IMG/VR virus record: IMGVR_UViG_3300031886_000002
Length of the DNA stretch: 64,000 nucleotides
Origin: an uncultured virus (IMG/VR IMGVR_UViG_3300031886_000002)
Taxonomy: Duplodnaviria; Heunggongvirae; Uroviricota; Caudoviricetes
Direction: 5' to 3' (one strand)
Under the pieces are notes generated by a model. The model was not told the DNA's origin, searched no databases, and saw nothing but the letters and a program-made list of their open reading frames with translations. Position numbers and translations under genes: made by a program. Within the stretch, counting starts at the first letter, position 1, and the number at the start of each line of letters is the position of its first letter. Positions 5,501-62,182 of this stretch are shown here, piece after piece.

Positions 5501-8500
5501 GGAATGAATATGTTGTGTGCATTAAAACTTGTATGTGTTACATCAGGGGTAGGAGAAGTATCTACATAACTAAGTCCATCTGTATAATCCAAATAATTTT
5601 TATTCAAATTACCCCCAACAATATAAGCATTATTCATGTATAAATCATTGATATTTACTTCATCCAACTCTCTACCTCCGGGACTAGCATATATGTTAAA
5701 TGGTATTATTCCGGGAAAATTATGTCTCACGGTATCATCAGAAGTTTTATAGTAATAGTTATTTCTGATTACATATGCAGATACAGCACTAAGAACATCA
5801 TTAAATATTACCCAATCATCATCTACCCAATCATCATCACCATTACCTGTTACAGTAACAGTTGTGGCTCCTGTATTTGTAGTATTAGCAGGATGAGTTA
5901 CACCAATATACATTGCTAGTAAATTACCGGTAGTTGCATCATAAATTAAATCTCCCGGATATACTACTGTATCAGTTAAGGTAGTGGTTCCTGTAGCATA
6001 AAAAGTCAAATCTACACTATCAAGATTTGTTATTACATCTCTTTGTAAATCAATAGGAGGAGAGAATCTAGGGTATCTAAACTGTTGTAACTTAGTCATG
6101 TTATCAGTTTTATCTACAGATTCCATATCAACAGGATTAAAATGCCAATCAAAAGTGGCCTCTACTAATCTCATTATTCCAAATCTATTTATTTGATTAG
6201 AAGTAATGCTAGCATCAGAAATATTCATTCTTTGGTAACTATTATCTTTTCTTTTCACTTCATTAGTGTTCCCTGTATATTTTTCGTGGGATATACTATT
6301 GCCTTTGTCTGCTTCTGCTTCTACTAATAGTCCATAATTCACTAGGTTTTGTTCACTAAATCCTAAATGATTATGTCTTAATTGTGATTCTGGATAAATA
6401 TCTCCTAATGCTAGTAATTCATATCGGCTCACTCTTGGGTCTGTGTTTATAAATCTAGATGTTAATACATCTTCTGTAGTTGGTTCTGGATTTCCTACTC
6501 CTGTATTAGAATTATTTAACCAATTATCAGGATTTGTTATATCTCCTTGATTATCAATATCAATATTAGGATAGTGTTGTGGTAGTTTTAATTGAGTATT
6601 ACTACTTATCTTAAATTTATATGAATTAGTCAATTCATTATATTTAGCATTCCAAGCATCATCAATTAAATTACTTCCTTCAATTGGGACAAGAGAAGTA
6701 GTAGTAGCAGCAGTTACTGTTGAACCGTCTTGTTTAATACACCATGCTGGCGTAGCACCCAATATATTCTGTGCTCTACTTCCATCATTATAAACAGAAC
6801 CTACTGTATACTTCAATGTTCCCGGATTAAACTCTTGTAAATCTGTATATCTAAAGGTTTGTTTAGGACTATAATTAGTAGTGATTGTATCTTGTAAAGT
6901 GTGTAGAAAACCTCCACTTGGGATATTTCTATTAACTAGATATAAGTAGGAATTGTCATCTAATCTAGTATCAGAAGTATTAGTAGTTATACTACCTAAT
7001 ACCACAGGGAAGGTTGGTGCTAAGGTTAAAGTAGTGTTCTCTCCTTCTTTCTTCACACTTGATACTACTGAATAATAATTTGGTGATGACGGAGTTATTA
7101 CATTATTATAACTAATTGATGCTTCCTTTTCCTGTGCTAATTTGAACATAAAATTGCTATCATTCCCTTCACTAATTCCTTTCACAGAAGATAAATCATA
7201 CCCTAAACTACTATCTAAATCATATTGACCTGTTGCAGAAGTATATGCTAAATCTGAAAATGTTTGGTCGCCATTACTAGCGTAAGTAATTCCCTTCCCA
7301 TCAGCAAATACTAACCCTTTATTACCTGCTGAACTTAAATCTGTTGGATAAGAGACTGCTTTAATATTAGTGCTCATTGACTTTATACTTGATATGTAAT
7401 TGTTATGTGTTAATCTAACTAATTTTAGGTCATCACCTGCAGTAATTGTTTCTAACTGATTTTGTATTTTAAAGGTGGTATTACTACCAGCAACAGTAGC
7501 AAGTTCCTTAACTTCAGCAAGTAGATTTGAGTTTTCATCTAAGATTAAATCATATTTCTGTGGTAACGGTGCCAATACTGTAGGAACAGTAAGTGATAAT
7601 ACTCCGCCTGTAGTTGTGGTACTGTTAATATGTATTGCAGTTACATCATCAAAGATAGGATTCAAACTAGAATAGACCACATCATTAGTAACATTCAAAT
7701 TCTTACTTGTAGTATTACTTAGTAATTTAGATATGGTATCTCTCCCACTAATCTCATAAGTAAGCATACCATGTTCCAACTTTGATTCAATATCTTCTAT
7801 TGTTCCTACAAATACTTCTTCATCCATAGCAAATTTGCCTGTGAAATAATATAGGAATGAATTAGCATTACTTGGATTATAATATTTTTTAGTAGAATTC
7901 TGCAATTTAATATAACTATTTAATGAATCACCATAGTCTACTGTAATATCATGACCCATGTATTGAGGCTCTAAGAATGATAGTTTGGTATTATACAAAC
8001 TGTTATTCTTTTTACTGATTGTATTATCGTTTATCGTCAATCTTGTAAATGCATTATCATCATATACTCCTTCTGTATCTATTGGAATAGAACCTCTTAC
8101 CCCTCCATTCCACGCTTTAACATAAGCCTTTTGTCCTACTATACTTTCTAAGGAGGATATTGCTGAAAAGATAGTGTCATATAACTTCTTCTTTCTATTT
8201 ATTGTTAATTTTTGTGAATTACCTGTTGGTGCGGCAATAGCACTAATGATATAATAGTAATCATTCACCCTTATCATATCACCAACATTGATATAATTAT
8301 CATTTCTTAAATCAAATTCATCAAAAGAAGCACCTGAAATTTTCTCTTGTGGTGTTTGATTAACTGTAAGGAAATAACTACCACCTGAAACAGAACCTGT
8401 TACCGTATAAGGCAATTCAAACTCTTTCATATTCCCTGCAAATATTGTGCTTCGTATTGTTAATGAGTGGTCTTCTTTTAATTTTAAGTGTTGTATTCCT

Positions 8501-9951
8501 GCATGGTCAAGTGTTGTTACTCTAGCCATCTGGGTCATCTTATTTCTAGGATTATTCACTACTGATTCCATTACAGTTGAAATTATGTTATTCTTTAATT
8601 TAGCAGACTTATAATATAGATACCTATTTGCCCCACTAGCATTTCCATGTATAGCCACTTCTCCACCTGATGTTGCTGTTTGTGCATTTATTTTATCATC
8701 TGTAGTTCTTTGATTATTTCTAATTATATGTCTCCATTTGCTTGGGTCTTGGGATGAAGCATAAGATATTCCATCATCATAATCTGTTTCTAAAGTATCA
8801 CTATCATATACCTTATCTACAAATAAGGCATCATGATTCATTAAACCTAAATCATTTACTATTGTTCCATATTCTCTTTCAGTTCTAAAGATAGAATGAT
8901 GTATCGTTCTACCTATGTATACAGGGTAAGTTCCTGTTGGCCAATTACCACTTGATATTCCATATCTAGCATAGTCTATTTCTAGTTCATCTTCTAAACC
9001 ACTTGTAATATCTGTAACATTCCCAAAGTGAATTCTATTACTTTGGTCAGCCAAAAATATACTTTGACCTTTAATTAAATCTGTAGTAGCAAGATTTGAA
9101 AATGTTATATCACTTGGTGGGCCAAATGCAGCAATTTGTGAACCCAATATTACATTTCCATCTGTGCTTACTCTAGTATAATCACTAAACCATCTGCAAG
9201 TAGTTAGATTATATTTAGTATTAAAATCCAACTGATTCTTATTTACTAATCTATCCTCATAGAAATACCATGTGGGCTTGCTAACCTTACTGGCTTCATC
9301 ATATTTTAATCCAGAGATTGCTGTGCTACCTCTAAGTCCATAAGATACCGCTACTACATCTGTATCTGTTACTGCTGGCCCTTTGAATAATTCAAACTTG
9401 GCACCTTTTGGAACAGCACTAGGATATTTTGGTTCAAATTCTATACCATCCCCATAATTATCATAGGCAATAATCTGCTTTATTTTAGCAAAATGAGGTT
9501 TTATAATTGTTGTTCCATCATTTCCTTCATAGTCTGGATTGATTAATACAAACCAATCATTATCTTCTAAGTTTATTACAGGAGATAAATTGTATACATT
9601 TTGTCCCACACTATTCTTTTCAGTTCTTAATTTATGTGGTCTAGTTTGTTCTTGATTGCCTGCACCATAATCACTTATTGTTTTATTGTTAGGGTAATAC
9701 CTATTTACAATATAATCTTTAGAGTCACATGAAATCATCCCATCATAAGGCCCGTTTCTAATCTCAAAGAAGTTTGCTGAAACCCCTGTTGCTTCTTCAG
9801 ATATTCCTGTTGATTTAATTATAGGATTAACTGAGCATTCTGAAAAGGCTGTTGCTGGAAACGCATCATCTTTGGCTGCAAATGTAGTAGGTAAGGTTAC
9901 AGTGTCTTCTTTAGATGCATTCAAAACATATGTATATCTTTCAGCCATCAT
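2563..9951 (-). CDS. Very large tail tip/baseplate hub protein (2462 aa)
   Basis: Position downstream of tape measure; T/S/N-rich; C-terminal ANKIIVIG...LMKPGDLITL segment resembles tail hub proteins. Confidence 0.65.
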   Translation of the reverse strand: MMAERYTYVLNASKEDTVTLPTTFAAKDDAFPATAFSECSVNPIIKSTGISEEATGVSANFFEIRNGPYDGMISCDSKDYIVNRYYPNNKTISDYGAGNQEQTRPHKLRTEKNSVGQNVYNLSPVINLEDNDWFVLINPDYEGNDGTTIIKPHFAKIKQIIAYDNYGDGIEFEPKYPSAVPKGAKFELFKGPAVTDTDVVAVSYGLRGSTAISGLKYDEASKVSKPTWYFYEDRLVNKNQLDFNTKYNLTTCRWFSDYTRVSTDGNVILGSQIAAFGPPSDITFSNLATTDLIKGQSIFLADQSNRIHFGNVTDITSGLEDELEIDYARYGISSGNWPTGTYPVYIGRTIHHSIFRTEREYGTIVNDLGLMNHDALFVDKVYDSDTLETDYDDGISYASSQDPSKWRHIIRNNQRTTDDKINAQTATSGGEVAIHGNASGANRYLYYKSAKLKNNIISTVMESVVNNPRNKMTQMARVTTLDHAGIQHLKLKEDHSLTIRSTIFAGNMKEFELPYTVTGSVSGGSYFLTVNQTPQEKISGASFDEFDLRNDNYINVGDMIRVNDYYYIISAIAAPTGNSQKLTINRKKKLYDTIFSAISSLESIVGQKAYVKAWNGGVRGSIPIDTEGVYDDNAFTRLTINDNTISKKNNSLYNTKLSFLEPQYMGHDITVDYGDSLNSYIKLQNSTKKYYNPSNANSFLYYFTGKFAMDEEVFVGTIEDIESKLEHGMLTYEISGRDTISKLLSNTTSKNLNVTNDVVYSSLNPIFDDVTAIHINSTTTTGGVLSLTVPTVLAPLPQKYDLILDENSNLLAEVKELATVAGSNTTFKIQNQLETITAGDDLKLVRLTHNNYISSIKSMSTNIKAVSYPTDLSSAGNKGLVFADGKGITYASNGDQTFSDLAYTSATGQYDLDSSLGYDLSSVKGISEGNDSNFMFKLAQEKEASISYNNVITPSSPNYYSVVSSVKKEGENTTLTLAPTFPVVLGSITTNTSDTRLDDNSYLYLVNRNIPSGGFLHTLQDTITTNYSPKQTFRYTDLQEFNPGTLKYTVGSVYNDGSRAQNILGATPAWCIKQDGSTVTAATTTSLVPIEGSNLIDDAWNAKYNELTNSYKFKISSNTQLKLPQHYPNIDIDNQGDITNPDNWLNNSNTGVGNPEPTTEDVLTSRFINTDPRVSRYELLALGDIYPESQLRHNHLGFSEQNLVNYGLLVEAEADKGNSISHEKYTGNTNEVKRKDNSYQRMNISDASITSNQINRFGIMRLVEATFDWHFNPVDMESVDKTDNMTKLQQFRYPRFSPPIDLQRDVITNLDSVDLTFYATGTTTLTDTVVYPGDLIYDATTGNLLAMYIGVTHPANTTNTGATTVTVTGNGDDDWVDDDWVIFNDVLSAVSAYVIRNNYYYKTSDDTVRHNFPGIIPFNIYASPGGRELDEVNINDLYMNNAYIVGGNLNKNYLDYTDGLSYVDTSPTPDVTHTSFNAHNIFIPMISGLHRSQESGVERKRYFSAFHDIPQWEEDNTYWTGTDPVYHHTSRVVAALALETFKEGVGVNWGGLAHYNNGKPLNHIYDNCIANFQDFKKIVGDSVSGISSAPLELDTTAAYATYFDYEGNDVDQHSRNLMITRKGRNKALIGTKTANSNLFGSGRNTKTNHFEITSQSSSAYLYNSQMFIKPTVNLSKITSGTLSSHGCSLSSTTLTFQMNDNSTHHWMAFMPNLTGYYLVSEQFISGARLSNQAKAVFSSKSGSTITVLGYAAATITCSDNPSPNETISITSTDGTTKTYTARYSIDEANNEFDKDGEITEVMSSLKTCIEHSSGHNGKITVTQSAGKLILTQATAGEAGETTITSNLSNTTVTNFIASNGTEEFPTSGKITIAGSYVDESSDTINGSQVVTYTEKTATTFKGCKLDTTRNWNDNNYGDVITQYGNEKKGVPSLITRITGHELEVNGGYTEHELTLDTAITTATHGTKFRLMRISETTFEDTPEKIEILQMHDTGLKYDTTPFDLVTGVIDNNNPKYQEALYSMYMLLHIDEKDGNFLDRRTIGTMPDQLDLSGDFYITDGNTSALKTIRGQKVTDTSLTFHYDGNLTGNGVVSFGETFTVDSPSNMSITGKRAYLGSTISIGTDIEIAIEEILEENDIDIDTSERNLVYTSNIVEIKPPSTTITLYDNAINLTSGDIIYNQDGKLIGELSATPTSNAVSVSTIYYKPIANDELVKYTRLPFIDNTNFNEHDVFNSINYLAAKRSLEYIFVNNKVKINSMDNYDTKRKFSARWRDSNNILGVNSNKSLFDKANKIIVIGDNVKATAEEPTNDTARVIKHIDPNIKTIQDARVLASNLLEIHNQDSRKITVKLEKTGYELMKPGDLITLNFPLHGIPADDYIIFEIENVMSSVLTITVGTFNKTIAERLSQINITQDKGFTNLFTKEVSQTVTDKIIPDSFDLEEESLKYQLTQTTGGSTIGFA

Positions 9952-26403: not shown

Positions 26404-28923
26404 TCATTCCGCAAACGACATACCTAAATTTTTATGCCTATCTTCACTAATATCCCATATACCAGCGTCTTCATTTGTATCTAGCATCTTCTGCTTGTAT
26501 CCTGTCCAAACTAACCATTTGTCCTCACCCTTCACAGGTACGACTCTAAAGTGTAGTCTAGTCTTAAACTTGTTACCATCAATCTTATATTCATGATAAC
26601 CATGCTTTTGAACCCCTAAGATAATCTCACCCTTATCTAAGAGTTTTTCCTTTTGTGTTTTATTAGACACTTGAGCAGGAAATTTACCGGCTTTTCCAAA
26701 TAGATTATAAATATCTTCATTGTCTTCTATATCAATTGTCCAAGCAAATGTTTCATCATTTACTTGTATTATTAAATCTAAATTATCATCTTTTCTAACA
26801 TAAAGTTTGTATCGGCCCTTTTTAGAAAGTTCTGTAGAATCTTTAATTATTGCCTTATCATTATAAGTATAGTTATTGTGATTTACTTGGATAAATTCAT
26901 CAAAGTCATTCATCCAATTTTTCATTTTTGTAACATTTCCATCCCATAATTGGTCAACTAGAATAGGAATTTGTCTTTCAGCATTTTCAAAAATATCTTT
27001 CAAATTTACTCCTTTTCTATTATCATCTTTTTGCTTTAAATAATTATGTAATACCACTCTTGCTTTACCACTTTTTGATTTGTATATCTTTTGTAATTCT
27101 TCTTTCCAAACATCAATATCAATCAATGCATTCTTTTCCATTAAAGAATCTCCATCGAAACCATAAATAGTATATCCATCAGTATCAGTTTTTAATATTA
27201 TTTCAGCCGTACCATGTATTCCATCTGTAATTGTATATTTTAATAAAGCCTCTTCCACTTCATACTTAAGAGTTTTCTTACCATCTTCTGATAACAAAAG
27301 CATAGTAACTAATTTTTCAGGATGTTCCACTTCGGGTATTTCAATTACCTTAGCAGAATATAAACTAAACCCTTTACCTTTTCTTCTAACTTCATCAACC
27401 TTTACTCTAACAATAGAACCTATTTCGACCTTCTGCTTTGTATTCAATGCTTTACCAACCTTCAAATATGTTTTACCATCCAATTCAGTACCTCCATATT
27501 CTCTAGCCTCTTCTCCTGTTAGTGGGCCTATACCTAGAACATATGAATATAAATCAGATTTGGTTTTATTCTTCTCTAAAACTATAACATCTAAATCAAC
27601 GAACTTCTTCCACTTAATCCATTTTGGGTTTTTCTTTGTTCCAACATAATAAGTTGATTCAATGTCTTTTATTACTACTCCTTCTGATGCTGGTAATTCC
27701 ATAATATCTTTAGCATACTTTTCAATCTCTTTGAGTGAATCTGCAATTCTAGTATTCTTCTTTGAAGGGAAACTTAAAAGGTCATCAGACAAGGAGGATA
27801 ACTGATAAAACATAATATTAATTCTATCTCTTAATGTAGAATCTAATAATGATTGTCCATCATGATTCATAATATCAAAGACTCTTGCCTTTAATGTAGC
27901 ATCAGGATATTTATTTTTAAACAAATGTGCAATAGTATCTGCTCTATGCAAAGGGTCTTTATCATCATACAATATTAATTCTCCATCTAAAATCATATCA
28001 CCAAACTTTTTCTGTTTCATTATTTCAGCAATATCCTTACACTTTTCAGTAATATCTTTTTCATTATAAGTATAAATTTTAACTTTATTATCTACCTTAT
28101 GCAATTGTATTCTAATACCATCATATTTTTCTTGAACAACCCATTCACCACTAAAACCTTTTAGTTCTTTAATATCCTTTACTTCAAATATTCTATACAT
28201 TGGCTTATTTGGAATAATAAAATCTATATCCTCTTTCTCCTCTTCACTTTTCTCCTCTTTTTTCAAAACAATTTCTACTAATTTATCCCATTGTTCTTCA
28301 GTATGAGTAGATAAATATACTTTCTCTAGTAGTTTTAATGCTCCCTTAAATTTACCTTTAACTCTACTAGTATCAACATCATCACCATAATGTTCAATAA
28401 TATACAAAGGAATATCAGACACTTGCAAATCTAAACCTTTTGCTCCTTCTGTTATAACATCAGGTTCTAAATCATGTTTTTCCCATGCACTCTCAGGTAT
28501 AGAGTGGGAATGGTTTCTCAAAGCATAATGAACAAATTGAGCAAATAAGGCAGGTTTCCCTTCTAAAGTTTCAATTACCTTCTCACCCATTTGTTTTCCA
28601 AAAGGGTCATTAATTGAATCAGATTCAAAGCGCATAAGTTTTATATCATTATACAATTGTTCTGCTTTACTAGATTCGGGGTTCAATGCTTCTTTACTAA
28701 ATACAACATCTTCATCTAACGCATCCTTAATTTTCTGAGAAAACTCACTAAGTCCATCAAAATCTTCTCTTATCTTCTTTACAGATTTCTCCCATTCTTT
28801 ACCATATTCTTTAGGGTCTTCTTTTGCTGACAGAAATTTAAATCTAACATCTTCATAGAAATCAAGGACTTTCTTAAATAGATAGTCCGTTTTCTTTTCA
28901 AACTCAACTCCTGACAACGGCAT
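26404..28923 (-). CDS. lig: ATP-dependent DNA ligase with extra N- and C-terminal domains
   Basis: Motif I EKYDGIR, LDGEL, FDI, EGVVIK, WIKWK. Confidence 0.9.
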   Translation of the reverse strand: MPLSGVEFEKKTDYLFKKVLDFYEDVRFKFLSAKEDPKEYGKEWEKSVKKIREDFDGLSEFSQKIKDALDEDVVFSKEALNPESSKAEQLYNDIKLMRFESDSINDPFGKQMGEKVIETLEGKPALFAQFVHYALRNHSHSIPESAWEKHDLEPDVITEGAKGLDLQVSDIPLYIIEHYGDDVDTSRVKGKFKGALKLLEKVYLSTHTEEQWDKLVEIVLKKEEKSEEEKEDIDFIIPNKPMYRIFEVKDIKELKGFSGEWVVQEKYDGIRIQLHKVDNKVKIYTYNEKDITEKCKDIAEIMKQKKFGDMILDGELILYDDKDPLHRADTIAHLFKNKYPDATLKARVFDIMNHDGQSLLDSTLRDRINIMFYQLSSLSDDLLSFPSKKNTRIADSLKEIEKYAKDIMELPASEGVVIKDIESTYYVGTKKNPKWIKWKKFVDLDVIVLEKNKTKSDLYSYVLGIGPLTGEEAREYGGTELDGKTYLKVGKALNTKQKVEIGSIVRVKVDEVRRKGKGFSLYSAKVIEIPEVEHPEKLVTMLLLSEDGKKTLKYEVEEALLKYTITDGIHGTAEIILKTDTDGYTIYGFDGDSLMEKNALIDIDVWKEELQKIYKSKSGKARVVLHNYLKQKDDNRKGVNLKDIFENAERQIPILVDQLWDGNVTKMKNWMNDFDEFIQVNHNNYTYNDKAIIKDSTELSKKGRYKLYVRKDDNLDLIIQVNDETFAWTIDIEDNEDIYNLFGKAGKFPAQVSNKTQKEKLLDKGEIILGVQKHGYHEYKIDGNKFKTRLHFRVVPVKGEDKWLVWTGYKQKMLDTNEDAGIWDISEDRHKNLGMSFAE

Positions 28924-54408: not shown

Positions 54409-55364
54409 TACTCTTCTTCCTTAACATGACCCGCTGTAACCAATGGACCATACAAGATTCTTTGTTGCCTATTTAACCTGTTAAAAAGTTCTTTACTTTC
54501 AAACCTAGCATGGGGATTATGTTGTTTACCACTTAATACTTCTTTGACTTTATTTGACAATCTTTCCTTCATTGGTGCTTTACGGAAATTCAATTTGCTA
54601 AGAAACTCCTTGTGTTGAGACCCATATTTTTCAATTGCGCCATGTAATGTAACTGGGTAATCTGTATACCAAGAATTAAATATATTATCTGTTATTCTTG
54701 CATCCATGCTAATCAACTGTTCTTCTGTTAGGTCTCGATAATAATGCTTTTGTTCTTCTTTACTAGCAATAGTATGAATATCTATCATTTTATCCTTACC
54801 TGCCAGATTATCATGTTCTGTGTCAACAACAATACCCTCTATCCAAAGTATAAAGTTATGTAAACTTTGCTTTTTATATCGGTTTAATCCCGGATAATTT
54901 AACAAACTCTTACTTCTTTCATATTTTGAAGATGTTTCTGCTGTGATTGCTAACCATTCTTTTCCCCATGTTTCTTTAGTGTCTGTTCCAGCCGTTGAAC
55001 GATAATACCATTCATCACCTTGTTTCACCCACCCAGTTTCAGAATATTCTCCTGTTAATGAATGTCCAGCATGAATTGCTTCATGACTCGTTATTTCAGT
55101 TATCATTCTCTGTAGTTCAGACTCACTTGGTTCTTCACCATCATTATCTTTCATTAATACCTGCCGCATTGCACCTAAATAAAGATGTATTTCCCTTGAA
55201 CCTTCTTGTGTAGGGCGATAAGATTGACCTTGTATATCTGGTAAATCTACTTGACGCATAGTTCCCATAATACCACTATCCGTGTCATTGTCCTTAAAAC
55301 CAGTATGGACTTCTACATCTATATTAGATTCTGTCATCTTTAATATGTCAAACCAAAGTGGCAT
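54408..55364 (-). CDS. Putative zincin metallopeptidase, WxxhhK tag
   Basis: MPLWFDILK; helix ending in HEAIH with a downstream E. Confidence 0.6.
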   Translation of the reverse strand: MPLWFDILKMTESNIDVEVHTGFKDNDTDSGIMGTMRQVDLPDIQGQSYRPTQEGSREIHLYLGAMRQVLMKDNDGEEPSESELQRMITEITSHEAIHAGHSLTGEYSETGWVKQGDEWYYRSTAGTDTKETWGKEWLAITAETSSKYERSKSLLNYPGLNRYKKQSLHNFILWIEGIVVDTEHDNLAGKDKMIDIHTIASKEEQKHYYRDLTEEQLISMDARITDNIFNSWYTDYPVTLHGAIEKYGSQHKEFLSKLNFRKAPMKERLSNKVKEVLSGKQHNPHARFESKELFNRLNRQQRILYGPLVTAGHVKEEE

Positions 55365-55704
55365 AATATTTCAGTCCATTAAATCTCAAAATTTGGGCTG
55401 GAATTTATTTGGCACTTGCTTTTATTTATTCTTTTATTGCTCGCCATTCCCAGAATAAGGATAACTATTAGAATTAATCATAGTAAAACAAAAAACTAAT
55501 CATTAAACTAGTGTTTGTATCCTTCTATATTTGTATGCCGCGTTTTTATTTATAGGTTTATTCTCATAATTAACCATAGGCTCTCTTGTGCTATGATACC
55601 CTACACGCGCACAGTATATGATTGTTGATGTACCACGCCTAAGATATTACACCAGTAAAACAAAAAAGAAATCATAGGACAAAGCACAAAAAAAATTCTG
55701 CAAA

Positions 55705-56299
55705 GCATATGGTACGAAGTTATCCTCATAGGGAATTAACGCTCATCATTAATCCGATACTCGCTACGCTCGCTAATGATTTACTATCCATATGGTTGGT
55801 GAGACTTATATCTTCGTCGGGTCGGTTACGAAGATTAGGTCGAACCGTTAAATACCCTATTGTTCAGGTTCTGCAGTCCAACCCCGAGAATTTCACCCTA
55901 CCTTCCTTAAAATCATTCTTATCTCTTTAATCCTCGGATAATTCTAATGCGGCTAAGTGCCGCCGGGATTAAAGAGATAACACACCATAGGTGCAGGAAC
56001 ACCCTAGAACCATATGGTCGTGGCGTGAAATATGGAGACGGCTGTTGCATAGTCTTACGCTCTCTATAAAGAGAATATATTAAAAGTAAGACTTGCAACT
56101 TTAGTTCCATGTTTCTAACACTAGGTGTAAGTTCCTGACCTGATGGGGTTAAAACCATATGGTCGTAGACCGGATGGGACTATATCAGTCGGGGTAAAAT
56201 AGAACATCTTACTGTTATATCCATTTGCTAAGCGCAAACGATGTTCATATTTTACCCTTCCCATAAAGGCTTGGTGCTATATGTCACACATCCATATGG
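55705..56299 (+). ncRNA. Hairpin array 1 delimited by CCATATGG palindromes
   Basis: Motif at 55788, 56010, 56155, 56292 (variant GCATATGG at 55705); long stems between the exact copies. Confidence 0.55.
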
Positions 56300-56331
56300 T
56301 TCTATACTTTGTCATTAGAGCCCCCATGTTA

Positions 56332-56493
56332 TTATAACCTTTCATTATAATAGCCTCTGAAACGATTAGAATCAAAGTTAATATTAGTCCTCCCTAATTT
56401 ACCCAATAATACATTAAACTGCTCATCTGTTAGTTTCATTTCTGCTGCCGTTGCTGCTATCCACATAAAATGCCTCCTCTGAAATAGACTCAT
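56332..56493 (-). CDS. 53-aa hypothetical protein (not in ORF track)
   Basis: MSLFQRRHFMWIAA...; ATGA-coupled. Confidence 0.55.
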   Translation of the reverse strand: MSLFQRRHFMWIAATAAEMKLTDEQFNVLLGKLGRTNINFDSNRFRGYYNERL

Positions 56494-56633
56494 TCATATT
56501 CCTCCGGTGTGTATATCTTACGCTTCACCATATCTCTAACCCAAGCATCTTGATTTCTCAATGGCTCTTGAAAATGTATTATTTCACATATCTGCACAAT
56601 TAGCCTTCTTAACTCTTCCTCACAAGGAGTCAT
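56490..56633 (-). CDS. 47-aa hypothetical protein (not in ORF track)
   Basis: MTPCEEELRRLIVQ...; ATGA-coupled on both sides. Confidence 0.55.
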   Translation of the reverse strand: MTPCEEELRRLIVQICEIIHFQEPLRNQDAWVRDMVKRKIYTPEEYE

Positions 56634-56734
56634 TTCATCACCGGCCACTTATTAAAGAAATGACAGTGCTTGCATACTCTACCCATAACAGTAGATTCAC
56701 CACACGCCCTACAATCTATATTATACTGTTGCAT
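56630..56734 (-). CDS. 34-aa Zn-finger microprotein (not in ORF track)
   Basis: MQQYNIDCRACGESTVMGRVCKHCHFFNKWPVMK; TAATG-coupled. Confidence 0.6.
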   Translation of the reverse strand: MQQYNIDCRACGESTVMGRVCKHCHFFNKWPVMK

Positions 56735-57024
56735 TACTTTCCTCTCCCCGCATTTGGGTCAATATCCTCAACATCAGGCTTCTCATCTGATGGGATTATA
56801 TTATCTGGGTGTTCAGAACATAACTCTATTGTATCCAAATCCCATTCTTCTTGAAAACTGCCTTCGTATTCGTTGTCAATTATATCCTCAAACTCATAGA
56901 TAGCATTAACAAACGCTTGAGCATTCATATTAGTTATTGCATCAAATGCCTCTGCTTCAATCCAAACTGTTCTATGATTCCAAATGTTTTCTGAAACCCA
57001 TACTGAAACAAGATACCTATTCAT
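56734..57024 (-). CDS. Hypothetical acidic protein
   Basis: Coupled ORF. Confidence 0.65.
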   Translation of the reverse strand: MNRYLVSVWVSENIWNHRTVWIEAEAFDAITNMNAQAFVNAIYEFEDIIDNEYEGSFQEEWDLDTIELCSEHPDNIIPSDEKPDVEDIDPNAGRGK

Positions 57025-57742
57025 CTCCCATCACCTTCTCAATTGTTACAGGCTCACACTTTGCAGTAGTTTCACTTCTAATAAAGGATATGCAATCAAC
57101 CATGAAAGTAAGGTCACAATCTACTGTGAATGTCTCCAATACAGATTCAATGATTTTTCTTATTGCTCGCATATCAGATAGAGGGACTTCAACAAGTTTT
57201 TCAGTAGCCGCCTTTCTTTCATCAACAGAATCAGCATTGTAAGTTATAACAAAATCAAGCACCCAAGTATTGCGCTTCTTCTCAAATGAAGTAACCATCT
57301 GAAGGTTATCATCATATCTCAAATTTGGATTACCCTCTTTATTGCTCTCTCCTTCCATATTTACAAATGCCATATGGAAAAATTCACCCGGCACTGACTT
57401 CCATTGTTCTACTTCCGTAACTACCTCTTCTCTCCTGTAATAAGCATCTTGATAGTTAGCATTCTTGAATCCATCAACGGCTATTATTGCTTCACTGTTC
57501 CAAGACAATCTAAAGATTTCCTCAGATTCATTATCAATGTATACCGGATATTGGTAAGTAGAATCTGTTTTAATACCAAACCCATAATTATCAGGGTTTA
57601 TCTTATCTCTCCAATGCCAGCGTGAAACTTGGCTTAGTCCTTCACAATGCAATAGGTATGAAACCTGTCTTGCAATATGTTCTACATCATCCCACTCTTC
57701 GGCTTCGTAGGTTATTGTCATATTTCTCTCAAATACTACCAT
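57017..57742 (-). CDS. Hypothetical protein
   Basis: Coupled ORF. Confidence 0.7.
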   Translation of the reverse strand: MVVFERNMTITYEAEEWDDVEHIARQVSYLLHCEGLSQVSRWHWRDKINPDNYGFGIKTDSTYQYPVYIDNESEEIFRLSWNSEAIIAVDGFKNANYQDAYYRREEVVTEVEQWKSVPGEFFHMAFVNMEGESNKEGNPNLRYDDNLQMVTSFEKKRNTWVLDFVITYNADSVDERKAATEKLVEVPLSDMRAIRKIIESVLETFTVDCDLTFMVDCISFIRSETTAKCEPVTIEKVMGDE

Positions 57743-57943
57743 TCACTCATCTCCCAGATTAGTGACATATTCGTTCAATGCTTCTTTAAGGTCAGTCATT
57801 ACTTCATTAAGGTCGTCACCAGATACCCTCAATTTGTTAATGCACAACACAAGACTGCTTCCAGACTTCATGTGTTTAACCTCAAGCACATATTTAGGCT
57901 CGTTTATTTGTTGTATAATAGTTTTATCATCCATTTTACTCAA
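57743..57943 (-). CDS. Hypothetical protein
   Basis: Adjacent ORF in operon. Confidence 0.6.
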   Translation of the reverse strand: MSKMDDKTIIQQINEPKYVLEVKHMKSGSSLVLCINKLRVSGDDLNEVMTDLKEALNEYVTNLGDE

Positions 57944-58053
57944 TCTTAATGCATTGGCGCTCTTTATGAGGAAGTGCAGTCAAAGCACACTACCATATGG
58001 TTTGGCGCACTTTGAAAGCATTAACCCGAATGGTGAGGGGGGCGCACCCCACA

Positions 58054-58617
58054 TCATTCTTCCTCGTTGCCTCCTACGGGGCCATTATCGAGGACATTCG
58101 GGAACCCATCGTCGGTATAGGTTCCATCCCATGTGTATTGCTTATCCTTATTCTTGGAATGAGCATTATACGCGGCGTTCAAGAATAGGCGTTCTTTGCC
58201 TACTACTGATGCGGCGTATTCTGATGCTCCATCTTCCATATTTCGGTAAAAAGCGCCACCTGACTTTCCGTGTAGTCTGGCTGAGGTTCGCACATAGCCC
58301 GAACCTTCAAAGGCTGCGAGGGCATCTGCTTCATAAGCGAGCAGGTATTCCTCAAACCTTGACTTCGTTTCCGAATCCATTAGTGACCTTCGACCCGAAC
58401 CAACGGGTGAAAGTTTGCCCAAGTGGGCGAACATTGACCCTATTGCGGACCAATGCTTCTTGCGTAATTGTGGCTGACCGTCACCGATGGAGAATATACC
58501 ATCTGTTGTGACCTTAATCCCTATGTGGTCGGGATTTGCTTCATACCACTCATCTATATCGGCCTTTCGGCCATTCCATTTATCATCATCCATACTGTAA
58601 TCTACCATATTTTTCAT
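58054..58617 (-). CDS. Hypothetical protein, paralog A (RxHGKSxG...WDGT family)
   Basis: Shares ordered motifs with 59356..59898. Confidence 0.75.
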   Translation of the reverse strand: MKNMVDYSMDDDKWNGRKADIDEWYEANPDHIGIKVTTDGIFSIGDGQPQLRKKHWSAIGSMFAHLGKLSPVGSGRRSLMDSETKSRFEEYLLAYEADALAAFEGSGYVRTSARLHGKSGGAFYRNMEDGASEYAASVVGKERLFLNAAYNAHSKNKDKQYTWDGTYTDDGFPNVLDNGPVGGNEEE

Positions 58618-58710
58618 GTCTCCTGTTTTTCCCCATGTTGTAGGTTTGCGCCCCCACTCATAAGTAATACTAACATTACTCTACTTAAGGTGATTTTACA
58701 AAGTGCAATA

Positions 58711-59277
58711 CCATATGGTCATGTTAATTAATTGACCCGATGGGCTAGCCTTATAAAAGAAAATTGGCATTGGATTGCTTTAGCAATCTTATGTGTGATA
58801 TGTATGCTTGAATTAGCGATAAACGGTCCACCACCATGTGAGATGGACAACGGAGGAATACATCCCTCCTGTCTACTACCAATGGAGTGAACCTATCACT
58901 AATCAAGCACATAATCACCGATTGCCTTCGCTGCCCAATCAGCCAATTTTCTGCTACCATATGGTAAGTATTGGGTGCTCTGCGCGTTATAGGCGAGTAA
59001 GATTGCTGCGAGGTGAACACTTAGTTCACCAAGATAGGCTACTGCAGCAACCTTAGGCGTCTATAAAACCAGTAGAGGTGTGGCGTGACTATGGTTCAGT
59101 GTGGTCACTTACCGGATTGGGGCGTATTCACTACCATATGGTATTAGGTTTTATTTTAACTCATGTTAAAAGGCGTGTAACTTGGTTGTTCTCTGTGTAG
59201 CCTCGCACCAATGGAAAAACGAGCGTTTTTCCTATCACCACTCAATCTACCACAGAAAAACTGCTAAAACCATATGG
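58711..59277 (+). ncRNA. Hairpin array 2 delimited by ACCATATGGT palindromes
   Basis: CCATATGG at 58711, 58957, 59134, 59270; stems in every interval. Confidence 0.6.
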
Positions 59278-59292
59278 TTGTGCTTTGCCTGC

Positions 59293-59306
59293 AACCCCTT
59301 ATAAGG
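59293..59306 (+). promoter_or_regulatory. TATA-like promoter (CCCTTATAAGG)
   Basis: Upstream of 59356; related CCCTTATAGGG at ~61765 upstream of 61805. Confidence 0.45.
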
Positions 59307-59355
59307 AATCGGCGGATAAGACTATTGCCCAAAACGGCGAACAACTAAATGGAAA

Positions 59356-59898
59356 GTGAAAAAAATGGAAGATATTAAGTGGGAATCTGTAAAGATTAAA
59401 GTTAATGGAATGTTTGAGGGAGATGCCGAGTTTGGCAATATCCCTGATGATGTAATCGGAATAGCACAAATGATGCTATCTTCCGGTGATGGAAATGATG
59501 AGACAAGAGATAGTATAACTGCATCTCTAAAGGCAATGTTGAAGGATTACGAAGGTTATCCGTGGAAGAAAGGCAATCAAGGTATTTTGCCTGTTGCTGC
59601 AAAGATAGTAGTTGACAATGCTTGTCAAGAGATTAGGGAGGCTGCAGTAGTCTTCTTTAATTCAACACAACAATATTCGCGCCCTTTGCTGCGAAAGCAT
59701 GGTAAGAGTAGTGGAAGCCCCGTCTATGACGATGCTGAAGATTACGCTAACACGCTTGCAGAAAAGGCACGAAAGACTGCAACAAAACTGTTTAAGAAGG
59801 ATGAAGATGGAAATCAAATCTGGGACGGGACAGTTTCAGGTTTAGAGGCTGCTTGTGCTTGGGAAGAGCCAGCAGACGAAGAAACGGAGAGTGAGTGA
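59356..59898 (+). CDS. Hypothetical protein, paralog B (RxHGKSxG...WDGT family)
   Basis: Shares ordered motifs with 58054..58617. Confidence 0.75.
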   Translation: MKKMEDIKWESVKIKVNGMFEGDAEFGNIPDDVIGIAQMMLSSGDGNDETRDSITASLKAMLKDYEGYPWKKGNQGILPVAAKIVVDNACQEIREAAVVFFNSTQQYSRPLLRKHGKSSGSPVYDDAEDYANTLAEKARKTATKLFKKDEDGNQIWDGTVSGLEAACAWEEPADEETESE

Positions 59899-60409
59899 TT
59901 AACTCACTTTAGTGGCCGGGTTGTGGCAGTTAGTGAGTGCATAGAGCCTTATCTTTTTGAAAGGTAAGGTTCTATGCCTCCAAATTGAGGTTCGATATGA
60001 CAAAGTATATTCAACCATATGGTTGTAATTGAGTCATAATGAGAGGCTGGAGGCGGTGGGCCTCGGCTTTATAAGGAGTACGACTCTCATAGAATCCGTG
60101 AATGAGTTATTCAGGGAATTGACTCACAAAGAGCAACTTCCACCTAAGCACTACATAATGAATGAACTACAATTGTCTTAATTTATTCCGGTGTGAAAAC
60201 TCTACCAAATTTAATATGTGCAATGAGTCCTATATTTATGTATCTCATACGATATATGTCATACACATATCCTTATGGCTTATCCTATATGATATGATAA
60301 GGGCGTAATAAAAGGAATCAATATGACACAGTTTCCAATGTTCTCATTTAGATAAGAACCTAAAGTGTATCAAAATGAAGCACTTCAGAAGGAGAAGTGA
60401 AGTATTATG

Positions 60410-60475
60410 AATATATTCTTATATTCTTATTATTATATTATATTATACACACCTACCTACCTACCTACCTACCCC
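60410..60475. repeat. AT-rich low-complexity tract plus (ACCT)x5 microsatellite
   Basis: atattcttatattcttattattatattatattata followed by acctacctacctacctacctacc. Confidence 0.75.
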
Positions 60476-60640
60476 TCAAGTCCCGCTAGAATATCGAGAA
60501 TCCGAGAATCGGAGTCGAACTGTATCATTATGAATGCTTTTAAGCGATTAACTGTATCATTCTGATATTCCACCGGGGTAGAATCAGGTGATAACATTCA
60601 CAGAATATTCCTAAATACAATTATTTAGGAGGTAACAAAC

Positions 60641-61225
60641 ATGAAATGGACAAAGAAAGATATAACACGACTAACAAAGTTGTGGAAGAAAGGAGATAAA
60701 CTAAAGATGATAGCAGTAAAGATGGGGAGAACGACACCATCAATAGTGTCTAAAGTAGCAGACCTACAAAGGAAGGGAGAACTTCCATATAGACACAAAG
60801 ATGGTGGAAAAGGTAAAGCAGACGATACAGGGACAGTTATCTTGAAAAGAACACATCTTTTGGGACAAAAGATGAACCCAGACCAAAGGAAATGGGTGAA
60901 TAACCCAGCAAAAGATTGGGATAAACTCAGTGAATACGTTGAGAAACAACGCCCCACACTAGGACACACAACCATTAGAATCATGGATGTGTGTGATGAA
61001 ATCAAAGCCTTCCTAGTTGCTAAGAATCAAGCATATGGAGATTCAGCATTACAACCAATAAGGATATTCTCAAAGTCTGATGCTTCAGAACAACTGAAGG
61101 TTAGAATTGATGATAAGTTGAATAGACTCATGCAAGGAAATGATTCAATAGAAGCAGATGAAGATGTAGTAAAAGACCTAATAGGTTATCTTGTACTTCT
61201 TCTGATTCAGATGAAGGAAGAATAG
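60641..61225 (+). CDS. N-terminal HTH fused to a nucleotide-modification-associated (DUF1599/Nmad1-like) domain
   Basis: MKWT...IAVKMGRT HTH; KNQAYGDS...RIDDKLNRL...DLIGYLVL. Confidence 0.7.
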   Translation: MKWTKKDITRLTKLWKKGDKLKMIAVKMGRTTPSIVSKVADLQRKGELPYRHKDGGKGKADDTGTVILKRTHLLGQKMNPDQRKWVNNPAKDWDKLSEYVEKQRPTLGHTTIRIMDVCDEIKAFLVAKNQAYGDSALQPIRIFSKSDASEQLKVRIDDKLNRLMQGNDSIEADEDVVKDLIGYLVLLLIQMKEE

Positions 61226-61620
61226 GCGCTGAACTATTCTATCCCGTTGGTACAATGAACTTAGTCTGTCTAAGTAAAAGTAGCCTGTTAAATCCCACCT
61301 GAAGATATTTAGGTAATAACATTGTTGAAGAGTTTTTGGTCTCTTCGCTACTACCAACAAAATAATACAAATATGCTCGCATTACAATCAACGGTGACTC
61401 ATAAAAGTGATGCTCGTCAATACGGTAAACCCCGTTGAACCGATATATTGACAGATTGATACTGACTCGGCATGGTTGAAGTACAGTTATCAATGGAGTT
61501 AGGTAGAGGACACAAAACTACTACAGTAAAGTATGGATTATAAAGACCCGGTGGCTTAAAAGCCATCAAAAATAATAGTCTTCTAAGCAATGATAATTGT
61601 TACCATACTGCCTAACTCCT
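61225..61620 (+). ncRNA. Putative ~400-nt structured RNA
   Basis: Several stems, a crossing stem pair, G-U pairs on the + strand; no credible ORF. Confidence 0.55.
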
Positions 61621-61645
61621 TAATACATACTGCTAGATTTCAAAT

Positions 61646-61723
61646 GCTCCATTGGTGTAGTCTGGCCCATCATACAGGGTTTTCGACTCTGTGACACGGA
61701 TTCAAATTCCGTATGGAGCACCA
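61646..61723 (+). tRNA. trnE: tRNA-Glu (TTC) with encoded CCA
   Basis: Acceptor gctccat/atggagc, anticodon arm caggg-ttTTCga-ctctg, T arm acgga-ttcaaat-tccgt, 3' ACCA. Confidence 0.92.
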
Positions 61724-61804
61724 ATTTAACTCAAATAATCTTATGGATGAATAAGATTACACAACCCTTATAGGGAACGCCCCACTCCAAAATACTACAG
61801 GAGA

Positions 61805-62182
61805 ATGACTATGAAGAAATGGAAGAAACAGAACAAGACAAGAATGAAGATATGGTATACAATGGACAAATATAGAGAATCGTCAGATTATCTAGAAACG
61901 ATAGAAACCCTTGAAGGCTATCAAGCGTATTTGAATACGCCAATGGCTGCATCATATGTAAATATAGAAGTGGAGACTGGCGAGATAATATCAGTCTCTA
62001 GAGAATTAGTGCTTAAGGTGAGATTCCTTAATTTACCTGATTGGACCCTATTAGGTGAAACACAAGTATCAGACGCCGCGAAGATGAGAATACTAAATCT
62101 AGATAATGATTTAGAAATCCAACGAGAGACATTTGACCAAGAAAAGAGATTGAGAGAAGCAAAAGGAGAGGAATTTCAATGA
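61805..62182 (+). CDS. Hypothetical protein
   Basis: GGAG RBS, TATA-like box upstream. Confidence 0.7.
   Translation: MTMKKWKKQNKTRMKIWYTMDKYRESSDYLETIETLEGYQAYLNTPMAASYVNIEVETGEIISVSRELVLKVRFLNLPDWTLLGETQVSDAAKMRILNLDNDLEIQRETFDQEKRLREAKGEEFQ

Follow-up and report, generated by a model that had tools for sequence, protein, structure and literature searches.

Anciently separated paralogs of an acidic protein family as cargo of palindrome-bounded cassettes in a probable archaeal virus

What role is played by two small, unnamed viral proteins whose genes point away from each other across an array of palindromes and hairpins? The question is raised by a locus in the uncultured tailed virus IMGVR_UViG_3300031886_000002 (IMG/VR), of which we analyzed a stretch of 64,000 nucleotides, hereafter the window. 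An initial annotation, made from the letters alone, had described the two genes, here A and B, as divergent paralogs at the strand switch that bracket a hairpin array (58711-59277) and are each followed by a copy of the palindrome CCATATGG, and it had proposed that their products are the protein partners of the palindrome or hairpins, possibly as a heterodimer. Our own answer, to which we give roughly even chances, is that A and B are ancient paralogs that form the signature cargo of palindrome-bounded cassettes in viruses of the magrovirus type, and that they may act in trans. The two genes are listed here with their likely starts (the second ATG in A, an ATG in B), chosen because of comparison with homologues:

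58054-58617, minus strand: paralog A, 187 aa, likely start 58608 (MVDYSMDD...), of the A clade of an unnamed acidic family.
59356-59898, plus strand: paralog B, 180 aa from a GTG, likely start ATG 59365 (MEDIKW...), of the B clade.

A BLASTP comparison of A with B gave 37.4 bits (E 2e-8), with 41 of 165 positions identical (25%) and a collinear alignment over nearly the full length, in which four motif pairs stand in register: MDDDKW/MEDIKW, RLHGKSGG/RKHGKSSG, ASEYA/AEDYA and YTWDGT/QIWDGT. The pairwise alignment is therefore significant, and the shared, ordered motifs that had first drawn attention to the pair reflect true paralogy. The strands of the open reading frames (ORFs) likewise confirm that A and B diverge at a strand switch, since the coding strand changes between them: ORFs of at least 120 aa lie on the minus strand to the left and on the plus strand to the right, the exceptions being a few ORFs left of the switch that overlap longer minus-strand genes (e.g. 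57762-58511, plus strand, 249 aa, which overlaps A) and one overlapping ORF to the right. The GC skew changes sign at about 58 kb.

Homologue searches returned 30 proteins for A at E ≤0.01 among 87 candidates, and 46 for B at E ≤0.001 in a library of 1.84 billion representatives; none of these homologues has a name beyond 'hypothetical protein' or a Pfam domain. In a FastTree phylogeny of 79 full-length members, an A clade of 27 (support 0.885) separates from a clade of 52 that includes B, together with the B copies of viruses that also have A copies. Within it, B of the window clusters with its B counterparts from the related loci L001-L008 (support 0.969), and a third paralog group, present in some viruses, falls inside the 52-member clade. 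Because the A and B clades hold copies from the same viruses, the duplication is old and both copies have been retained. No swapping of halves was detected within the family: the identities of the two protein halves agree (r 0.78), and a difference above 0.35 was seen in 0 of 3081 pairs.

Conservation is distributed along the whole protein. The N-terminus reads M-x-D-Y-S-M-D-D-x-x-W in the A type and M-E/N-D-x-x-W in the B type; the core carries G45-D46, R52-K53-x-x-W56 and S-P-x-G-x-G-R (P71, G75, R76); and the C-terminal part holds H116-G-K-S-G-G with Y124, W163-D-G and a terminal run of Glu. The predicted isoelectric point (pI) is 5.15 for A and 4.63 for B, with a family median of 4.84 (64 proteins of 130-230 aa from both homologue searches). 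An AlphaFold2 model built on the family alignment reached a predicted local distance difference test score (pLDDT) of 88.4 and a predicted template modelling score (pTM) of 0.59; alpha-helices dominate it, forming a bundle at the N-terminus and a long helical hairpin, and the C-terminal part adds a small beta-hairpin. Modelled alone, the C-terminal domain reached a pLDDT of 87.2 and a pTM of 0.77.

Searches for a known family or fold gave no assignment. Pfam returned no family for A or B at E up to 1, PHROGs returned nothing beyond phrog_11809 at E 0.19, scans of 31 members of alignment A2 found no family matched by more than one member, and sequence-profile searches of the PDB had a best E of 0.13. 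The structure comparison suggested as a check on the family left it nameless: Foldseek against the PDB had a best E of 1.6, and Foldseek against BFVD found one unnamed homologue only. An exhaustive VIA-align search gave a best Z of 6.0 for the whole model, with the N-terminal helices only, and 5.2 for the C-terminal domain alone, with short helical matches; neither yielded an assignment, and the ESM Atlas gave no usable match. Motifs that by eye resemble those of patatins, HKD and RHG proteins and tyrosine recombinases were noticed in A and B and dropped, as their spacing and the predicted fold do not seem to fit. On these sequence comparisons, A and B are shown to be anciently separated paralogs of an undescribed, virus-specific family of acidic proteins.

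The DNA around the two genes is partitioned by the palindrome. The window holds 11 copies of CCATATGG in its 64 kb, all within 55788-60022, where 1.22 would be expected, and 0 of 100 shuffles reached 11; the copy at 57370, which lies within an ORF and lacks the A/T flanks, is probably a chance occurrence. A copy does follow each gene, as annotated, 54 nt past the stop codon of A (57993) and 117 nt past that of B (60015), and copies also precede them, 94 nt before the first ATG of A (58711) and 79 nt before the GTG of B (59270). Of the 21 loci that the protein search retrieved, 19 have CCATATGG as their top 8-nt palindrome and the other two have it among the top three, with 5-23 copies per locus of 7-12.5 kb. 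The consensus over 278 copies extends to TAnnACCATATGGTnnTA, and the core of the junction, ACCATATGGT, is a perfect 10-bp palindrome. A role of the palindrome as a local hairpin was considered and rejected: the variable flanks within one copy are no more complementary than shuffled pairs, and the palindrome is therefore a conserved sequence. Among the papers listed for CCATATGG with 'phage', or for ACCATATGGT, the titles and abstracts are unrelated to the junction motif.

The anatomy of the units between palindromes was analyzed on 90 non-redundant genes of the A/B family. Beside protein-coding units, the sequence CTTTG stands on the gene-facing side of the palindrome after a spacer of 4-10 nt. 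The motif lies within 160 nt upstream of 74 of the 90 genes (CTTTG faces the gene in 70) and no more than 160 nt past the stop in 65 (CAAAG faces the gene in 58). With the motif and the facing CTTTG/CAAAG at both ends, each gene thus has terminal inverted repeats, which for A are 34-nt arms at 57987-58020 and 58691-58724. The junction can be drawn as a stem that opens at the palindrome's GG(T) and closes with (A)CC, with CTTTG in the loop and the spacer pairing with the sequence past CTTTG. The mean length of the uninterrupted stem is 5.13 bp at 5' sites (n=70), where shuffled partners give 3.47 ± 0.09 bp (maximum of 200 shuffles, 3.74), and 3.95 bp at 3' sites (n=58), where they give 3.28 ± 0.09 bp. 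Stems of at least 5 bp occur in 25 distinct sequences among the junction hairpins. Paired stems that exceed shuffles while having many distinct sequences constitute covariation for a junction structure, in DNA or RNA.

Downstream of this stem, a TATA-like box starts within 14 nt in 40 of 54 5' sites (0-3 nt in 36), as against 4 of 34 3' sites, and a conserved WWTG box follows, most often placed so that 28 nt separate its G from the TATA box's first T. This geometry of TATA box and start box is what an archaeal TATA promoter looks like. A bacterial sigma-70 promoter of the -35/-10 type was rejected because its boxes and spacing do not fit, and a crude promoter profile over all pattern matches was set aside as uninformative, since it includes chance single matches. 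In the window, the boundaries of the two genes are the following:

58711-58718, no strand: A 5' boundary palindrome, (A)CCATATGG(T), from the sequence and the cross-locus consensus.
58689-58712, minus strand: A 5' junction hairpin, GGTATT..(CTTTG loop)..AATCACC, 6 bp with one bulge, drawn by eye; family-wide covariation.
58681-58688, minus strand: A promoter, TATA-like box TTAAGTAG, with a predicted start at G 58659.
57993-58014, no strand: A 3' boundary, palindrome 57993-58000 plus inward-facing CTTTG 58010-58014 (inverted repeat I1).
59270-59277, no strand: B 5' boundary palindrome, from the sequence.
59276-59296, plus strand: B 5' junction hairpin, GGTTG..(CTTTG loop)..CAACC; family-wide covariation.
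59299-59306, plus strand: B promoter, TATA-like box TTATAAGG, with a predicted start at G 59327.
59989-60022, no strand: B 3' boundary, a CAAAG-loop hairpin running into palindrome 60015-60022.

This arrangement shows each gene to be a self-contained monocistronic unit that opens with the junction palindrome ACCATATGGT, continues with a hairpin whose stem starts from the GGT half-site and whose loop carries CTTTG, and then presents a TATA-type box 0-3 nt past the hairpin, a conserved start box about 28 nt past the TATA box, and a short leader with a ribosome-binding site ahead of the gene. The far end of the unit carries a mirror-image hairpin and the palindrome. Palindrome and hairpin together form the junction common to all cassettes and non-coding units, the place where units relocate or invert.

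Assembled contigs from four RNA libraries of three studies were inspected over 55500-60500. Word depth over A was 303-415 in the data labelled X17 and 118 in X18, over B it was 1.7-3.7 in X17 and 45 in X18, and over the flanking genes other than A and B it was about 1-11 in X17 and X18. In two ocean metatranscriptomes the depth of A thus exceeds that of most neighbouring genes, B excepted, by some 30- to 100-fold, and this excess over adjacent genes rules out DNA carry-over as its cause. The ratio of A to B depth was about 100 in one run and 2.6 in another. In X18, A is represented by one 625-nt contig that covers 58058-58648 (591 nt) and has Illumina adapter at both ends; a contig from X17, which belongs to another study, likewise ends at 58648. 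The B contig spans 59335-60001 and ends in the loop of the 3' junction hairpin, 14 nt before the palindrome. The 5' ends of the contigs lie 11 nt (A) and 8 nt (B) inside the predicted starts. We read these data as separate and strong transcription of A and B at unequal levels.

Two details of the contigs deserve mention. The X18 contig over A is a discrete piece whose 3' end stops two bases short of the stop codon, with a GC-rich hairpin further downstream at 58037-58050; either transcript processing or an artefact of the library could account for it. One X17 contig joins opposite strands inside B (59596/59693, depth 3.7), which is probably an assembly artefact. Over 58673-59340 the depth of RNA contigs never exceeds 2.2, a result that is uninformative about small RNAs.

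The space between A and B, together with a second array to the left, is occupied by non-coding units:

58719-58956, no strand: long-hairpin unit 1, between A and B; z -6.9, -6.7.
58965-59133, no strand: long-hairpin unit 2; z -3.9, -2.8; apical hairpin GGTGAAC-TAAGT-GTTCACC.
59142-59269, no strand: hairpin unit 3; z -1.7, -2.6.
55788-56299, no strand: left sub-array, four palindromes (55788, 56010, 56155, 56292) bounding three more hairpin units.

The three stretches between the palindromes of the 58711-59277 array therefore do fold as long hairpins, as had been described, and long imperfect hairpins are predicted for all six non-coding units of the window, with z between -1.7 and -6.9 relative to dinucleotide shuffles. 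Across the loci, short non-coding units of about 70-330 bp are represented by 195 distinct sequences, which fall into 164 BLASTN clusters, so that nearly every non-coding unit is unique in sequence. Apical hairpins with a variable stem and a lineage-specific 5-nt loop occur in several lineages: the loop ATTAA (19 cases plus 17 in reverse orientation) in L001-L004, GAATA (9 plus 5 reverse) in L015, L019 and L021, and G/ACTTA in the window's lineage (e.g. window 56163-56291, 55796-56009 and 58965-59133). With the loop read in one sense, 59 of 60 units have the apical hairpin within their first 44%, and this bias in position implies that the non-coding units are polar and present in either orientation. 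Folding energies of the hairpin units show no strand preference (36 vs 23, Wilcoxon p 0.11), a negative result for strand-specific RNA structure. A CCCC..(A/T-rich)..GGGG element is also seen in many non-coding units.

How general the junction is becomes apparent from a census of single-gene cassettes, defined as intervals of 300-3000 bp between palindromes in which the longest ORF covers at least half. The A/B family is encoded by 72 of the 165 distinct single-gene cassettes (44%), and the other 93 encode proteins of small families, with no more than six members each, whose matches in PHROGs are to families of unknown function only. The A/B family is thus the commonest cargo, and it is present in every well-covered array examined. 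A comparison of L003 and L004, which are collinear and 95% identical in the A region, revealed at least seven blocks that are relocated or inverted and whose ends lie at palindrome copies; inverted blocks include L003 3905-4121, equivalent to L004 8832-8619, and L003 7192-7365, equivalent to L004 6780-6599. B lies on the strand opposite to A in nine loci and downstream on the same strand in three. Because the palindrome bounds all cassettes and non-coding units, and related viruses shuffle there, it is not a private site of A and B, and we infer that the back-to-back arrangement of the two genes is one of several cassette orders and not a dedicated operator architecture.

Shuffling of this kind raises the possibility that the A/B proteins drive it, as small recombinase- or transposase-like enzymes of selfish cassettes that have the non-coding hairpin units as non-autonomous passengers. 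The genes are bracketed by inverted repeats of 20-34 nt, the units of close relatives have moved or turned exactly at the palindrome, A/B is by far the commonest cargo (72/165), and H, K, S, Y and R residues are conserved in the proteins. Nevertheless, we judge this explanation improbable: A and B resemble no recombinase, transposase or nuclease family or fold; adjacent units have one palindrome in common and target duplications are absent; the units are nearly all unique (195 in 164 clusters), unlike the copies of a spreading element; ordinary recombination between repeats of 18-30 bp would be enough; and such a high mRNA level is unusual for a transposase.

The association between the family and the motif was assessed in both directions. 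Homologues do adjoin palindrome-hairpin arrays, since 21 of the 21 protein-found loci are enriched in CCATATGG. For the converse, the viral collection was searched with the DNA pattern only, which gave 207 loci in 102 sequence clusters. All 13 clusters with at least eight copies of CCATATGG encode the family, as do seven of the 10 clusters with 4-7 copies, the three misses being two loci under 2.4 kb and a third with a marginal member (E 0.0086). Among clusters with a single copy, 50 of 60 lack the family, and these are mostly chance matches. The number of paralogs per locus ranges from one to three, with three in L033, L040 and L048 and a single one within ±6 kb in L009-L012, L016-L018 and L020. 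Plain palindrome copies number at most two in seven A-only loci and at least five in 11 of 13 loci with both A and B; since the A-only viruses form one clade, this link between lacking B and being poor in palindromes counts as a single event and has no statistical weight.

This two-way association would also fit a dedicated junction-binding protein. Under that explanation, A and B would recognise the junction palindrome or hairpins as homodimers or as an A-B heterodimer, and would regulate or insulate every cassette. It draws on the co-occurrence (21/21 protein-found loci; 13/13 and 7/10 motif-found clusters), on A/B being the sole protein family seen in all arrays, on the invariant basic and aromatic residues and the Gly-rich loop of the proteins, and on a palindrome that is invariant across viruses, as a conserved reader would require; in addition, acidic DNA binders exist, such as KorB and phi29 p6. 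We regard it as possible but doubtful, since the proteins are acidic (family median pI 4.84) and match no DNA-binding family or fold in Pfam, PHROGs, Foldseek or VIA-align, all the viruses belong to one lineage, so that the co-occurrence may be inheritance, the mRNA of A is far above the need of 10-23 sites per genome, and the copy number varies from one to three with A and B RNA unequal. Of the proposal that A and B are partners of the palindrome, the co-occurrence therefore stands, and the singling out of A/B as its reader does not, as the same junction bounds 93 cassettes of other proteins as well as the non-coding units. Copy number and unequal RNA levels also weakly disfavour an obligate A-B heterodimer.

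A bolder version, which we consider speculative and rather unlikely, makes A/B the protein so far missing from a novel type of cassette system in archaeal viruses, with an as yet unseen fold that recognises palindrome-hairpin junctions and either insulates or activates promoter units or catalyses relocation and inversion at ACCATATGGT. In that case, A, B and the third-clade paralogs would handle different classes of junction or hairpin loop.

A further candidate reader of the palindrome is the product of the gene that adjoins the array (window 60641-61225, plus strand; L001 9506-10084 and others), which stands beside the array in 14 of 21 loci. Its C-terminal domain is strongly conserved (phrog_1485; 30 invariant columns in 13 sequences), and in some lineages its N-terminus resembles, weakly and below Pfam cut-offs, a helix-turn-helix (HTH) or GcrA-like domain. 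As a universal palindrome reader this protein was rejected, because conservation is confined to the C-terminal domain and several lineages lack the HTH part.

The location of the array at a strand switch with a change in GC-skew sign, its many repeated sites and hairpins and the AT centre of each palindrome could also be taken to indicate a replication origin, with the palindromes serving as iterons to which A/B would bind as initiator or accessory proteins. We consider this very improbable, given that the sites extend across 4-7 kb and delimit cassettes that are transcribed from promoters of their own, that the number and order of units vary freely among close relatives, that the switch in skew is explained equally well by the switch in transcription, and that the acidic A and B lack an initiator fold.

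The level of A/B RNA suggests a stoichiometric rather than a catalytic or regulatory role. The conserved Arg, Lys, His, Ser, Tyr and Trp residues and the Gly-rich loop, together with the acidic ends, suggest binding of a phosphate-bearing ligand and docking of partners. From these residues we tentatively propose, with limited confidence, that A/B may be an abundant trans-acting protein with a pocket for such a ligand and acidic termini that recruit partners. The pocket would be lined by the conserved basic and aromatic positions R52, K53, W56, R76, H116-G-K-S-G-G, Y124 and W163, and its ligand would most likely be nucleic acid; A/B would not be a sequence-specific reader of the palindrome, and the roles of A and B would be separate and non-redundant. 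Phages are known to make abundant acidic nucleic-acid-binding proteins with acidic C-terminal tails, such as T7 gp2.5, T4 gp32 and phi29 p6. Like these, A and B are small, acidic and highly expressed and combine a conserved acidic C-terminal tail with aromatic and basic residues; unlike them in sequence and fold, A/B is modelled as helical and not as an oligonucleotide/oligosaccharide-binding (OB) fold. The comparison with OB folds found the models to be mostly helical with one beta-hairpin, and no SSB (a protein that binds single-stranded DNA) appeared among the fold matches, a missing match being no proof against that family.

The identity of the virus bears on the archaeal reading of the promoters. 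The window carries genes of the tailed-virus type (portal, large terminase, HK97-type capsid protein, protease, tail tube and a tape-measure-like protein), and between the head protease and portal genes, at 26404-28923 on the minus strand, lies a gene for a protein of 839 aa in which Pfam recognises an ATP-dependent DNA ligase domain (PF01068, E 3e-27). A ligase of this kind embedded in the structural module is given as a notable trait of magroviruses in the text of Philosof et al. 2017 (PMC5434244). A family-B DNA polymerase is present in five of the five related viral records, which are 71-96 kb long, and is split into two ORFs in four of them; such a split is reported in that text for magrovirus group B (PMC5434244). 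In G006, G007, G009 and G010 (the contigs of L008, L014, L001 and L002), the polymerase halves are adjacent ORFs of about 550-580 and 305-312 aa, and an internal TAA is seen in two matches to the second polymerase part among the related records. The window is thus like magroviruses in its marine origin, the virus having been found in marine metagenomes from 14 studies, and in its head-tail module with an embedded ATP-dependent ligase, and its relatives are like them in the split family-B polymerase. These features fit a virus of the magrovirus type, a marine group associated with Marine Group II archaea, an assignment that is well supported although indirect, and the host is probably an archaeon. 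The virus is very distant from cultured phages: its terminase is 27% identical to those of Bacteroides phages, and the region has no DNA or protein match in the GenBank phage collection.

Several observations weigh against the interpretation of A and B as trans-acting cargo of magrovirus-type cassettes. The two-way co-occurrence of family and motif would fit a direct partnership of A/B with the palindrome equally well, and no other candidate for the palindrome's reader was found in the arrays, the neighbouring protein having its HTH in some lineages only. The functional part of the interpretation is based on conserved residues and charge, and the family and fold searches returned no match. As to the cassettes, 16 of the 90 family genes have no upstream motif within 160 nt. 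Regarding transcription, neither ends nor strand nor level can be established from assembled contigs, and DNA may be present in RNA libraries. Finally, the magrovirus assignment of the window is made indirectly and the replication genes fall outside its 64 kb, while the MCM model of Pfam exceeds its cut-off in none of the five related records; most replication proteins of magroviruses are said in the text of PMC5434244 to need more sensitive profile-profile searches.

Other features of the window and its relatives are recorded here as side observations. A 2462-aa ORF in the tail region (2563-9951, minus strand) has no Pfam or PHROG match. A tRNA-Glu gene (anticodon TTC) lies just past the array at 61646-61723 on the plus strand, and in an Rfam scan of 55000-62000 a tRNA was the sole pass. 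A gene for a phosphatase of the PAP2 superfamily (PF01569, E about 1e-11) is found near the array in L008 (7393-8256) and L006 (2395-3249).

Promoter-early stem-loop (PeSL) cassettes, which reportedly occur in the hyperplastic regions of T4-type phages, offer the first of two comparisons. In both systems small accessory genes are carried as units with a conserved module of promoter and stem-loop, and related genomes shuffle units at the repeated module, as L003 and L004 do here. Unlike PeSL, the present junction consists of a 10-bp palindrome that does not vary and is flanked by hairpins on both sides, so that the two ends of a unit mirror each other; its promoter is of the TATA-box type in a probable archaeal virus, whereas PeSL uses a bacterial sigma-70 early promoter; and the system comprises many non-coding long-hairpin units, with one family accounting for 44% of the distinct single-gene cassettes. 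Integron cassettes and their attC sites also recall it, in having diverse units, coding or not, in either orientation, with a structured repeated site between them and an order that differs between relatives. However, attC is an imperfect palindrome with R''/R' core sites and the junction described here is the perfect palindrome ACCATATGGT, and integron cassettes lack promoters whereas these have their own of the TATA type. A Pfam scan of 29 ORFs of the window, which is only part of the genome, revealed no integrase-like protein.

We found no description of a palindrome-cassette system in the titles and abstracts listed or by word searches of the main text of magrovirus papers. The main text of Philosof et al. 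(PMC5434244) mentions no palindromes, repeats or promoters, that of two later magrovirus papers mentions no palindromes, promoters, cassettes, intergenic regions or hairpins, and in the main text of PMC11706807 'repeat' refers to terminal or assembly repeats only. New here is A/B as a dominant, universally present, anciently duplicated and highly transcribed cassette cargo.

Magroviruses reportedly rank with the most abundant surface-ocean viruses (PMC5434244; bioRxiv 10.1101/2025.10.05.680483), and their hosts are uncultured. Present in all arrays examined, retained as ancient paralogs and heavily transcribed, A and B are strong candidates for proteins that serve a key step of infection. The junction DNA and the A/B proteins are short, well-defined reagents for binding work, and the cassette system, with one 10-bp palindrome and its flanking hairpins, could serve as a model for modular genome evolution in archaeal viruses.

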